The notes beneath the pieces were generated by a model. That model had not been told where the DNA came from and made no database searches. It saw nothing but the letters and a program-made list of their open reading frames with translations. From positions 2,053 to 66,052 of the forward strand of contig JAQYFP010000181.1 of the NCBI GenBank assembly GCA_028723085.1: a DNA stretch of 64,000 nt. Reading direction: 5' to 3'. The translations under genes and the position numbers were made by a program. How positions within the stretch are numbered: the first letter of the stretch is position 1; each line of letters starts with the position of its first letter. Source of the stretch: Erysipelotrichaceae bacterium. Lineage in GTDB: Bacteria > Bacillota_I > Bacilli_A > Erysipelotrichales > Erysipelotrichaceae. This document shows positions 20,523 through 23,086 of this stretch, piece by piece.

Positions 20523-20590
20523 TCTTTGTATTCTATTCTACAATAAACATCAAATTTTTTAAATTTATTATTTTATGATACTCTTTAACT

Positions 20591-23086
20591 ATGAGAAAAA
20601 AAGTATGTATTGGCATTTTAGCCCATGTTGATGCCGGTAAAACGACATGCATTGAAAGTATGTTGTATTTATCTGGTCAAATTCGTAAATTAGGACGAGT
20701 CGATCACCAAGATGCGTTTTTAGACTATGACAATCAAGAACGAAATCGTGGTATTACGATTTATTCAAAAGAAGCTCATTTTACTTGGAAATATACAGAT
20801 ATCTATGTCATTGATACTCCAGGTCACATTGATTTTTCAAGTGAAATGGAACGAAGCCTTCAAGTATTGGATTTAGCTATTTTATTAATTAATGGGCAAG
20901 ACGGTGTACAAAGTCATACCCAGACAATATGGAAATGCTTAGAACACTATCATGTTCCTACGCTTTGTTTCGTAAATAAAATGGATATTTCCTATCATTC
21001 AAAAGAAGATCTTTTATTAGACTTAACGAAGAAATGTCATTCCAATTGTATTGATTTTAACAATGATGATAAATTTGAAAAACTTGCTTTAGTAAATGAA
21101 GACTTATTAAATGAATACATTCAAAATGATTCCATTTGTACTGATTCCATCCAACAAGCCATCTATAAAAGAGAATGTTTCCCGGTATTCTTTGGAAGTG
21201 CTTTAAAATTAGAAGGCATAGAGCCATTAATGGATGCCATTAAACAATATTCCCTTGATTGTGAATATGGACAAGAATTTGGAGCGAAAGTTTATAAAAT
21301 ATCAAAAGACGAACAAGGAAATCGTCTAACGCATATTAAAGTCACAAGTGGTTGTGTAAAACCCAAACAAATCATTAATGAAGAAAAAATTGATCAAATT
21401 CGTTTATATAACGGTAAAAATTACACCATGCTCAATCAAGCCGATGCCGGTATGATTTGTGTATTAAAAGGATTGGAACACTTTGAGGTAGGACAAGGAA
21501 TGGGAATTGAAAAAGATAGTGAAAAACCTCTTTTAAATGCGTATTTAAACTATCAGCTTGTCCTTCCAAGTGGCATTGATCCTTTACAGATGATGAAAAC
21601 ATGTGACTTGTTGTGTAGCCAAGATCCACAATTAAATATTGAATACGAATCTCAATCTAAAAAAATTAATGTTCAATTAATGGGAGACATTCAAATGGAA
21701 GTTCTCCAAAATCGCATTGAAAAAGAAACAGGAATTAAAGTTGGTTTTACTACAGGAAATGTCATTTATAAAGAAACAATTACTGAACCCGTTTATGGAG
21801 TAGGACACTTTGAGCCTTTACGTCATTATGCCGAAGTTCATTTAAAATTAGAACCTCTTCCACGAAATAGTGGACTTCAATTTGAAAGCGATGTTTCCAT
21901 GGATTCTTTAGCTTTAAACTGGCAAAGATTGATTCTAACACATCTTCAAGAAAAACATCATAAAGGTGTTTTAACTGGTTCCTATATTACGGATATGAAA
22001 ATCACATTGGTAGCTGGTAAAAGTCATCTAAAACATACAGAAGGTGGTGACTTTAGACAAGCTACGTATCGTGCCGTTCGTCAAGGTTTAAAGAAAGCAC
22101 ATTCTATTTTATTAGAGCCCTATTATTCATTTAATCTTACTTTGGATTCCAATTCTTTATCAAAGGCTCTATATGATTTAGAATGTCGTCATGCCACAGT
22201 TACTATTGAAGACCACTTAGATGGAACTTTCACTGTATCAGGTAGAGGTCCTGTGCGTCTATTGATGAATTATCAAAATGATGTAGTTGCGATGACAAAA
22301 GGAAAAGGTGTCTTTACTTGTCAGTTAGATGGCTATGATGAATGTGTTGATGCCGATAAAATCATTGAAGAAATTGGTTATGATAGTGAACAAGACTTTA
22401 AAAATCCTACGGGATCCGTTTTCTGTACCCATGGTTCTGGTTTCTATGTTCCTTATGATGAAGTTGAAGAATACATGCACATAAAACCAAAAAGTGAAAG
22501 TACAAGTCAATCGTATTCAAGTCGTAAATATACAATTGATGAACAAGAAGTACAGCGTGTTTTTAATATGATTTCGGGTCAGAATAAGAAAAAGGAAGAA
22601 AAGAAACCAAAAAAGAAAACCGATATTTCATATCAATCTGTTACGGTTAAGGAAAAACTACCTGAGTGTTTAATTGTAGATGGCTATAATCAAATATATG
22701 GATGGGATTCTTTAAAAGAATATGCTCATAGTGAAATTGACTATGCCCGTTCGGTTTTAATTAGTGCTCTACAAAATTATCAAGGATATAAAAATATAAA
22801 AGTAATCTTAGTATTTGATGCGTATCGTGTTAAAGATTCTACAAGTCGTAATTCTAAATATGGAGATATGGAAGTCATTTATACAAAATATGGACAAAGT
22901 GCTGATAGTTATATTGAAAAGCTAGTTCATGACTACAAAGGAAAATATAAAATGGTTGTTGCCAGTTCCGAGGGTTTAATTCAAAATTCTATTCTTGCCA
23001 GTGGTGCCATTCGCATGAGTGCAAGAGAATTAGAGTGTCGAGTCAATAGTGTCAACCAACAAGCATTTAACTCATTAAAAAAATAA
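20591..23086 (+). CDS. EF-G/TetM-like translational GTPase fused to a C-terminal NYN (YacP/Rae1-like) nuclease domain
   Basis: G1 AHVDAGKT, RGITI, DTPGH, NKMD; EF-G-like domains IV and V (HYAEVHLKLEP, LLEPYY); C-terminal LIVDGYN..VFDAY..SADSYIEK..GAIRMSAREL. Confidence 0.85.
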   Translation: MRKKVCIGILAHVDAGKTTCIESMLYLSGQIRKLGRVDHQDAFLDYDNQERNRGITIYSKEAHFTWKYTDIYVIDTPGHIDFSSEMERSLQVLDLAILLINGQDGVQSHTQTIWKCLEHYHVPTLCFVNKMDISYHSKEDLLLDLTKKCHSNCIDFNNDDKFEKLALVNEDLLNEYIQNDSICTDSIQQAIYKRECFPVFFGSALKLEGIEPLMDAIKQYSLDCEYGQEFGAKVYKISKDEQGNRLTHIKVTSGCVKPKQIINEEKIDQIRLYNGKNYTMLNQADAGMICVLKGLEHFEVGQGMGIEKDSEKPLLNAYLNYQLVLPSGIDPLQMMKTCDLLCSQDPQLNIEYESQSKKINVQLMGDIQMEVLQNRIEKETGIKVGFTTGNVIYKETITEPVYGVGHFEPLRHYAEVHLKLEPLPRNSGLQFESDVSMDSLALNWQRLILTHLQEKHHKGVLTGSYITDMKITLVAGKSHLKHTEGGDFRQATYRAVRQGLKKAHSILLEPYYSFNLTLDSNSLSKALYDLECRHATVTIEDHLDGTFTVSGRGPVRLLMNYQNDVVAMTKGKGVFTCQLDGYDECVDADKIIEEIGYDSEQDFKNPTGSVFCTHGSGFYVPYDEVEEYMHIKPKSESTSQSYSSRKYTIDEQEVQRVFNMISGQNKKKEEKKPKKKTDISYQSVTVKEKLPECLIVDGYNQIYGWDSLKEYAHSEIDYARSVLISALQNYQGYKNIKVILVFDAYRVKDSTSRNSKYGDMEVIYTKYGQSADSYIEKLVHDYKGKYKMVVASSEGLIQNSILASGAIRMSARELECRVNSVNQQAFNSLKK

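Follow-up and report, generated by a model that had tools for sequence, protein, structure and literature searches.

A Tet-like translational GTPase joined to a Rae1-type nuclease: a candidate single-chain Rae1 in the Erysipelotrichaceae

Why would a bacterium join a GTPase resembling the tetracycline protection proteins to a nuclease of the Rae1 family? The question is raised by one gene in a 64,000-nucleotide stretch of an Erysipelotrichaceae genome (GenBank assembly GCA_028723085.1, contig JAQYFP010000181.1, positions 2,053 to 66,052), hereafter the window, whose product of 831 amino acids (aa) has an EF-G/Tet-like N-terminal part and a C-terminal domain of the NYN_YacP (Rae1) family. Using profile searches, structure prediction, phylogenetic trees and genome surveys, we arrive at a reading that we favour on balance and with modest confidence, namely that the gene is the Rae1 of this lineage in a single chain, whose GTPase would keep the nuclease tethered to ribosomes that have stalled or collided.

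The architecture itself has been published twice. Tet proteins with a YacP-like NYN domain were described from ten "clostridiales" species, with the suggestion of an RNase test (Atkinson, 2015, BMC Genomics, PMC4342817), and TetM–NYN_YacP fusions were noted again with their role left open (Matelska et al, 2017, NAR, PMC5499597); the window protein is a further member of this known family. What we add is that it is the sole Rae1 of its genome, that the GTPase forms a clade sister to the Tet proteins, that the fused nucleases have lost the tail of stand-alone Rae1, that a natural short form exists, that the fusion co-occurs with canonical tetracycline ribosomal protection proteins (RPPs), and that the window copy carries a private change of Asp to Glu at residue 794 (D794E).

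Rae1 has been recognised only recently (2025–2026) as a Gram-positive collision endonuclease that feeds rescue by transfer-messenger RNA (tmRNA; PMC12407103; PMC13622287; bioRxiv 10.64898/2026.10.09.757949). A preliminary description of this locus, made from the sequence alone, placed Rae1 cleavage in the ribosomal A site. That location has since been revised by the group that proposed it: the cut falls 12 nt upstream of the A-site codon, at the rear of the ribosome that has stalled, and needs 2–3 collided ribosomes (PMC12407103; bioRxiv 10.64898/2026.10.09.757949). How Rae1 recognises collided ribosomes is unsolved, and there is no structure (bioRxiv 10.64898/2026.10.09.757949). The same description knew of no functional study of the fusion, and our literature search found none either; the fusion goes unmentioned in the 2023–2026 Rae1 papers searched, and Condon, Piton and Braun 2018, which falls outside that scope, may mention it.

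Architecture of the fused protein

The gene is a single open reading frame (ORF) with an ATG start. Its parts, with the Pfam and AlphaFold2 evidence for each, are as follows:

20591 to 23086, plus strand: the whole ORF, a Tet-sister translational GTPase, a linker and a Rae1-type NYN nuclease domain; single-copy in the genome
20603 to 21250, plus strand: G domain, residues 5–220 (Pfam GTP_EFTU, 2e-49)
21281 to 21745, plus strand: domains II and III, residues 231–385 (Pfam EF-G_D2 at 231–302, weak, and EFG_III at 336–385, both below their cut-offs; the AlphaFold2 model matches the EF-G/TetM fold)
21755 to 22099, plus strand: domain IV, residues 389–503 (Pfam EFG_IV, 5.8e-22; ungapped alignment with TetM 3J9Y; family conservation)
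22109 to 22345, plus strand: domain V, residues 507–585 (Pfam EFG_C, 2.9e-13)
22373 to 22480, plus strand: C-terminal mini-domain, residues 595–630 (family alignment and AlphaFold2)
22481 to 22669, plus strand: flexible basic linker, residues 631–693 (AlphaFold2 confidence)
22670 to 23083, plus strand: NYN_YacP (Rae1-type) nuclease domain, residues 694–831 (Pfam NYN_YacP, PF05991, at 694–828, 1.2e-39, 136.3 bits against a gathering cut-off of 24.6; model positions 1–137 of 166)
22970 to 22972, plus strand: codon 794, GAG for Glu; this is the NYN domain's fourth conserved acidic position (Rae1 D104)

This layout bears out most of what the preliminary description had read from the letters, namely one ORF with intact G motifs, a division into EF-G-like GTPase, basic linker and C-terminal NYN domain, and the acidic residues of VDGYN, VFDAY and SADSY. 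All five G motifs are present (G1 AHVDAGKT, G2 RGITI, G3 DTPGH with the catalytic His79, G4 NKMD and G5 GSALK); they are kept across 126 family representatives and are invariant in alignment A1. The N-terminal 630 residues are predicted to be a GTP-hydrolysing translation factor of the EF-G/Tet fold. An AlphaFold2 model built with 59 homologues has a mean predicted local distance difference test score (pLDDT) of 79, and Foldseek pairs its body with structures of EF-G and TetM (E about 1e-50 to 1e-42). After domain V the model places a small folded extension, a disordered stretch (635–686, pLDDT below 50) and then a confident NYN domain.

The folded extension is a mini-domain with the consensus IGYDxExDxxNPxGSVFCxHGxGxxVPxDEVxxYMH, modelled as a hairpin (609–620) and a helix (625–628) at pLDDT 82–87. 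It matches no Pfam family and is absent from Tet proteins and EF-G, and the alignment shows it to be common to fused and unfused members of the clade. The linker that follows carries a lysine run, NKKKEEKKPKKK, and a short conserved helix at about residues 651–659, "EQEVQRVF"; across the family it measures 56–192 aa (median 85), with about 20% lysine plus arginine.

The nuclease domain is of the Rae1 type. Residues 693–824 align with residues 3–134 of Bacillus subtilis YacP/Rae1 (PDB 5MQ8/5MQ9; 3.8e-20, 132 residues). A "GYN" motif after the first Asp marks NYN_YacP/Rae1 (Matelska et al, 2017, PMC5499597); it lies here within VDGYN at 696–700, and among the 126 representatives its flanking Asp, its Tyr and its Asn are invariant, the Gly being kept in 123. 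The acidic residues D7, D53, D81 and D104 of Rae1 correspond to D697, D743, D772 and position 794 of the window protein. Both D697 and D743 are kept in 126/126 representatives and D772 in 125/126.

The window copy has Glu at position 794, where 124 of the 126 representatives carry Asp, as do 58 of 59 close homologues. The VASSE of the preliminary description is real in the window, codon 794 being GAG; as a family trait it does not hold, being a private one-nucleotide variant of this assembly. Conspecific copies on 10 contigs carry GAT (Asp, VASSD), and the conspecific protein seen on them, P0002, differs from the window protein at this residue only. Compared with the copies on contigs L110 and L111, the gene differs by a single nucleotide, T to G at window position 22972, which is also the sole difference from L111 in 8,496 aligned bases. 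Glu794 reflects either an error of assembly or, at a residue that binds metal, a change private to this strain; if it is real, it may weaken the nuclease there.

Fused and stand-alone Rae1 across genomes

Is the fused protein the Rae1 of its genome, or an addition to one? The source genome (1.89 Mb, 91% complete) contains one NYN_YacP domain, the fused copy, and the check for a separate yacP that the preliminary description proposed thus returned none. The same pattern runs through the order: 133 of 201 Erysipelotrichales genomes have exactly one NYN_YacP, nearly all in a frame of 810–940 aa, and a search of the same genomes with the GTPase part gave family-level matches only in NYN-bearing genomes and in the same ORFs. 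Genomes of this sample without the NYN domain also lack the GTPase. In Erysipelotrichales, then, the fusion is essentially the only form of Rae1.

The family reaches far beyond the order, with at least 588 confirmed stretches in a scan of species genomes. The loci examined are mostly labelled Lachnospiraceae, Oscillospiraceae/Ruminococcaceae or unclassified Clostridia, with others from Anaerovorax, Fusibacter, Eubacteriaceae, Holdemania, Holdemanella and Solobacterium, and they include the abundant human-gut genera Faecalibacterium, Blautia, Dorea and Agathobacter; the preliminary description was right to place similar fusions in gut Firmicutes. Three fusion contigs, L009, L010 and L076, are labelled Waltera intestinalis, Bifidobacteriaceae and Alloprevotella, respectively; L010 (54% identity) and L076 (43%), which bear non-Firmicutes labels, may be mis-binned.

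None of 24 diverse fusion-bearing genomes from Clostridia and Erysipelotrichia has an NYN_YacP besides the fused copy. Among 250 sampled Clostridia, 162 have an NYN_YacP domain, single-copy in all but one, and the exception's listed match lies at a contig end. When the NYN_YacP search is combined with the GTPase search, these genomes divide into about 91 with the fused form and about 71 with a stand-alone protein (165–213 aa), and none has both; the fused form is the commoner of the two in this sample. A tree of the NYN domain places a single branch (Shimodaira–Hasegawa-like approximate likelihood-ratio test, SH-aLRT, 93) between fused and stand-alone proteins, the latter including B. subtilis Rae1, and since one branch separates them the tree fits a single fusion event. 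In the class and phylum samples outside the order, NYN_YacP exceeded its cut-off only in one further family (f6), in frames of 880–930 aa; no stand-alone NYN_YacP was found in these samples, whose make-up is undefined, which would be odd if they included Bacillus-like genomes.

The fused nucleases also lack a part of Rae1. The 20 sampled stand-alone Clostridial proteins are uniform in length, and each has at its end an L..LxKLEK(I/L/W)RR helix; B. subtilis YacP has the same tail motif at residues 153–166, LSEEVLKTFEKLRR. The window protein stops near Rae1 residue 140, before this helix, and has no match to a profile of the tail, which replaced an over-strict regular expression. On the stand-alone set the profile scores 29–49 bits, values inflated because the profile was trained on that set, and on the independent B. 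subtilis fragment it scores 16 bits. Among 126 fused proteins it gave 14.9 bits on one, 9.1 on another and less than 7 on the remaining 124, and the tails of fused proteins vary in length. We read this as an element needed by stand-alone Rae1 that may have become dispensable once the GTPase was attached, and the missing helix leads to a concrete prediction for B. subtilis Rae1.

The fusion also has a natural short form. It is intact in two species of one Erysipelotrichaceae genus (594 aa, L114:246-2027, minus strand; 584 aa, L115:962-2716, plus strand) and consists of domains G and II, a stretch resembling domain III, the linker helix of the family and an intact NYN domain; domains IV and V and the mini-domain are absent, and Pfam finds neither EFG_IV nor EFG_C. 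The short form fits a GTPase that gives the nuclease an anchor at the factor site, or a switch run by GTP. In a third species of the genus (L116:143-3190) the gene is decayed, with the P-loop missing and the frame broken before the NYN domain. A transposase-like ORF lies upstream of this copy, which was broken by an insertion sequence. Exclusivity with stand-alone Rae1, joint gain and loss of the two halves, loss of the tail and the short form are together what would be expected if the GTPase had taken over one of the functions of the nuclease.

The GTPase and tetracycline protection

Could the protein be a tetracycline RPP, perhaps in a nuclease-assisted variant? This was floated by Atkinson (2015) and is implied by some automatic annotations, and the GTPase part does lean toward the Tet proteins. 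By sequence its nearest solved structures are TetM (253 bits) and TetO (245), with EF-G at about 220, and identity is 30–35% to Tet proteins and 24–25% to EF-G. The best NCBIfam model is tet_protect (NF012153), and the nearest named RPP is TetB(P), at 35% identity. TetB(P) is itself a weak protector.

The same comparisons set the family apart. The protein reaches 393 bits on tet_protect, whose cut-off is 775; NF033148 gives 280 against 1100, the Tet(M) model 257 against 1420, and the EF-G models TIGR00484 (270 against 659) and NF009381 (322 against 583) match in two stretches each, so that every Tet or EF-G model of NCBIfam falls far below its cut-off. A search of 1.84 billion representative proteins with residues 1–600 returned a best 150 matches of 484–706 bits, and 125 of the 151 sequences in the resulting set have the NYN domain. 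In a maximum-likelihood tree, whose rooting is weak because the root is a single EF-G, the family is one clade (SH-aLRT 100) with the window protein nested inside it, sister to TetB(P), TetW, TetM and TetO (99). Judged on these alignments, the protein is no canonical tetracycline protection protein and belongs to a clade of its own, sister to TetM/O/W/B(P). In two database proteins of the GTPase clade (P0129 and P0233) an Aminotran_4 or Acyl_transf_3 domain takes the place of NYN, probably through chimeric gene calls that take in the following gene.

Domain IV is the part with which Tet proteins dislodge the drug, and in TetM the loop-3 motif YYSPV makes the contact with the drug site. Residues Y506-Y507-S508-P509-V510 of TetM (3J9Y) align ungapped with S478-H479-L480-K481-H482 of the window protein, which falls within one of two family-specific domain IV motifs, GVGHFEPLRHYAEVHL (403–418) and AGKSHLKHTEGGDFRQATYRAVRQGL (475–500). 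In the 126 representatives the region that replaces YYSPV is a strongly conserved, different motif, HLKHTEGGDFRQATYRAVRQGL (consensus HLKHTEGGDFR), and the second family motif reads GVGHFEPLRHYAEV. The short form bears on the same point: it argues against ribosomal protection as the conserved role, because domain IV is lost and G-II-III-NYN is kept. Genome content adds to this, as the order sample gains and loses the GTPase with the NYN domain as one unit, and at least 11 Erysipelotrichales genomes (G200, G132, G037, G147, G023, G180, G115, G019, G039, G192, G063) carry a canonical Tet-type protein of about 643 aa (31–35% identity) beside the fusion.

The setting of the gene is also unlike that of tetracycline resistance genes. 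It is chromosomal, single-copy and free-standing, flanked by metY, metA and HAD genes on the opposite strand and by a convergent degV, with no mobile-element genes near it in the window. The upstream gap is AT-rich, measures 68 bp and contains neither a leader peptide nor an attenuator of the tet(M) kind, and regulation of that type was rejected on this ground. One further feature lies in this gap:

20544 to 20571, plus strand: possible sigma-70-type promoter, TAAACA-16-TATTAT (consensus match only)

Promoter-like sites were no more frequent in our scan than in shuffled sequence. The neighbours are unchanged on conspecific contigs, which come from at least four samples, and synteny is limited to these contigs: no neighbour from the window recurs beside the gene in 81 other loci, no neighbour family occurs in more than 10 of the 81, and the families that reach that number are promiscuous ones. 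A role in a defence system was considered and dropped, as PADLOC gives no match. Carriage on plasmids or other mobile elements was likewise rejected, the full fusion being found on one of 72,556 plasmid records, a 518-kb Monoglobus replicon. Taken with the sub-cut-off scores, the replaced YYSPV, the joint gain and loss, the co-resident canonical RPPs and the loss of domains IV and V in one genus, this setting makes tetracycline protection, in our estimate, very improbable as the function.

The preliminary description noted that such fusions are often labelled as tetracycline resistance proteins, and some members of the family do bear a "TetM/TetW/TetO/TetS family" annotation. Since these genes are sometimes annotated automatically as TetM/W/O/S resistance, resistome counts in gut metagenomes can be inflated.

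Proposed mechanism and comparison with known systems

How might a Tet-sister GTPase serve a nuclease? The comparative data appear to fit a GTPase that recognises stalled ribosomes and delivers the nuclease to them. The GTPase would dock at the factor-binding site of a ribosome unable to advance, whether the stalled ribosome or a trailing collision partner, and binding and hydrolysis of GTP would gate the dwell time, with hydrolysis timing release. The basic tether of 56–192 residues would let the NYN domain reach mRNA exposed at or between the stuck ribosomes and cut it, as stand-alone Rae1 does upstream of the stalled ribosome's A site in collided stacks, and the cut end would then let tmRNA rescue the upstream ribosomes. 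The GTPase would thereby take the place of the ribosome-finding element of stand-alone Rae1, which we propose to be the conserved C-terminal helix, and the role would not be primarily one in tetracycline resistance.

A more specific version holds that the Tet-sister GTPase is a GTP-gated sensor of non-translocating ribosomes which has replaced the docking helix of Rae1 in Clostridia and Erysipelotrichales, and that the G-II-III core suffices for this. The sufficiency of the core is suggested by the natural short form; as a whole, this version is possible and we hold it as doubtful. If it were true, the same nuclease would be aimed at collided ribosomes by a translation-factor module and not by a short peptide, and the clinically important tetracycline protection proteins would have branched off from, or be sisters of, a Firmicutes GTPase with a housekeeping role in ribosome rescue.

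The nuclease might instead target rRNA or tRNA, serving to mature, proofread or inactivate ribosomes, and the GTPase would place it at the interface between the subunits. A eukaryotic parallel is the eIF5B-stimulated cleavage of pre-18S rRNA by Nob1, and TetM structures place the C-terminus of Tet-type factors near the decoding centre. YacP was, moreover, first predicted to act in rRNA/tRNA processing, from an operon with mrnC and an rRNA methyltransferase (PMC5499597). Against this, all experiments on Rae1 show cleavage of mRNA that depends on translation and collision, and the fused NYN domain keeps the catalytic core and groups with the Rae1 homologues; the length of the tether suggests a reach outside the intersubunit space, and the 81 loci show no link to rRNA-processing genes. 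We consider an rRNA or tRNA target quite improbable.

Several observations weigh against the fusion being a collision-directed Rae1, and they are gathered here. Ribosome binding, the ribosome state recognised, the role of GTP, GTPase activity, RNA cleavage and its substrate are all things that we infer. The gene is dispensable, being absent altogether from about 68 of the 201 genomes of the order, about a third. In the window copy, catalytic position 794 is occupied by Glu. That the tail helix is the means by which stand-alone Rae1 finds ribosomes is a guess. Neither ARAGORN nor Rfam RF00023 found a tmRNA in this 184-contig draft genome; four of five genomes of the same genus have one, and the gap is therefore probably one of assembly.

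The last of these points concerns GTPases without a nuclease. Unfused members of the clade occur in 10 of the 250 Clostridia; seven of these genomes (G639, G673, G705, G619, G829, G749, G652; proteins of 633–729 aa) have no NYN_YacP at all, and the other three (G643, G763, G790) have an unlinked stand-alone Rae1. A further unfused member, of 644 aa, lies on the Ligilactobacillus salivarius megaplasmid pMP1046A (L003:5526-7917). Unfused copies in Clostridia and on this megaplasmid mean that the GTPase can work without the nuclease, and those in genomes without NYN_YacP that it has some job of its own. On the megaplasmid, an rpsN (S14) paralogue and a "putative metal homeostasis protein" lie divergently from the gene, and an ISL3 transposase is located downstream. 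One apparent unfused homologue, P0117, was rejected: it is frameshifted by a one-base change in an A8 run of the linker, and the NYN ORF begins a short way downstream; P0118 equals it in length and domain content. At L089:6000-6040 a one-base shift in the A8 run of the lysine linker leaves a 678-aa GTPase and a 100-aa NYN ORF, and runs of a single base in the linker may be why many database entries look "unfused".

Do the two halves then simply do separate jobs, the GTPase being a rescue or stress factor of its own, fused for co-expression or co-localisation and without GTP-gated delivery? The unfused copies speak for this, as does the lack of the GTPase in about 68 of the 71 genomes with stand-alone Rae1. 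Such independence is hard to square with the strict exclusivity of fused and stand-alone Rae1, with the gain and loss of both halves together in the Erysipelotrichales sample, with the loss of the stand-alone tail specifically in fused forms, and with the persistence of G-II-III plus NYN in one genus. We regard separate jobs as unlikely, and a single-chain Rae1 that is brought to stalled or collided ribosomes by its GTPase stays the reading we prefer. GTPases of the factor site are well understood as ligands of the ribosome, and the fusion would therefore give direct access to the place and time at which the nuclease is positioned.

How does the protein compare with known systems? With the published Tet–NYN_YacP fusions it shares the architecture and the organism group, and it lies inside that family in the tree; there is no difference in kind, the window member coming from an Erysipelotrichaceae genome. 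With B. subtilis Rae1 it shares the NYN_YacP fold, the GYN motif, the acidic residues that correspond to D697, D743 and D772, and a single family copy per genome; position 794, which corresponds to Rae1 D104, is Glu in this assembly. The B. subtilis protein, however, is free, about 170 aa long and ends in the C-terminal helix, whereas the NYN domain of the window protein makes up the final quarter of a GTPase of 831 aa and lacks the helix. TetM, TetO, TetW and TetB(P) have the same five-domain EF-G-like body, reduced G' insert and intact GTPase motifs; the window family differs from them in the loops of domain IV, in its extra mini-domain, linker and nuclease, and in a chromosomal housekeeping setting in place of mobile elements.

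Beyond these relatives, the proposed job, cutting mRNA at collided ribosomes for rescue, would be shared with SmrB of Escherichia coli, Cue2 of yeast and NONU-1 of Caenorhabditis elegans, which are collision-activated SMR endonucleases (bioRxiv 10.64898/2026.10.09.757949). Their nuclease fold is, however, unrelated to NYN, and a tether to a translational GTPase is found in none of the three. In eukaryotes, GTPases of the Hbs1/Dom34 and Ski7 type offer the precedent of a translational GTPase that reads the stalled ribosome and links it to decay of the mRNA or to rescue. These belong to the EF-Tu/eEF1A branch and recruit separate partners, whereas the window protein has a GTPase of the EF-G/Tet branch joined covalently to its nuclease.

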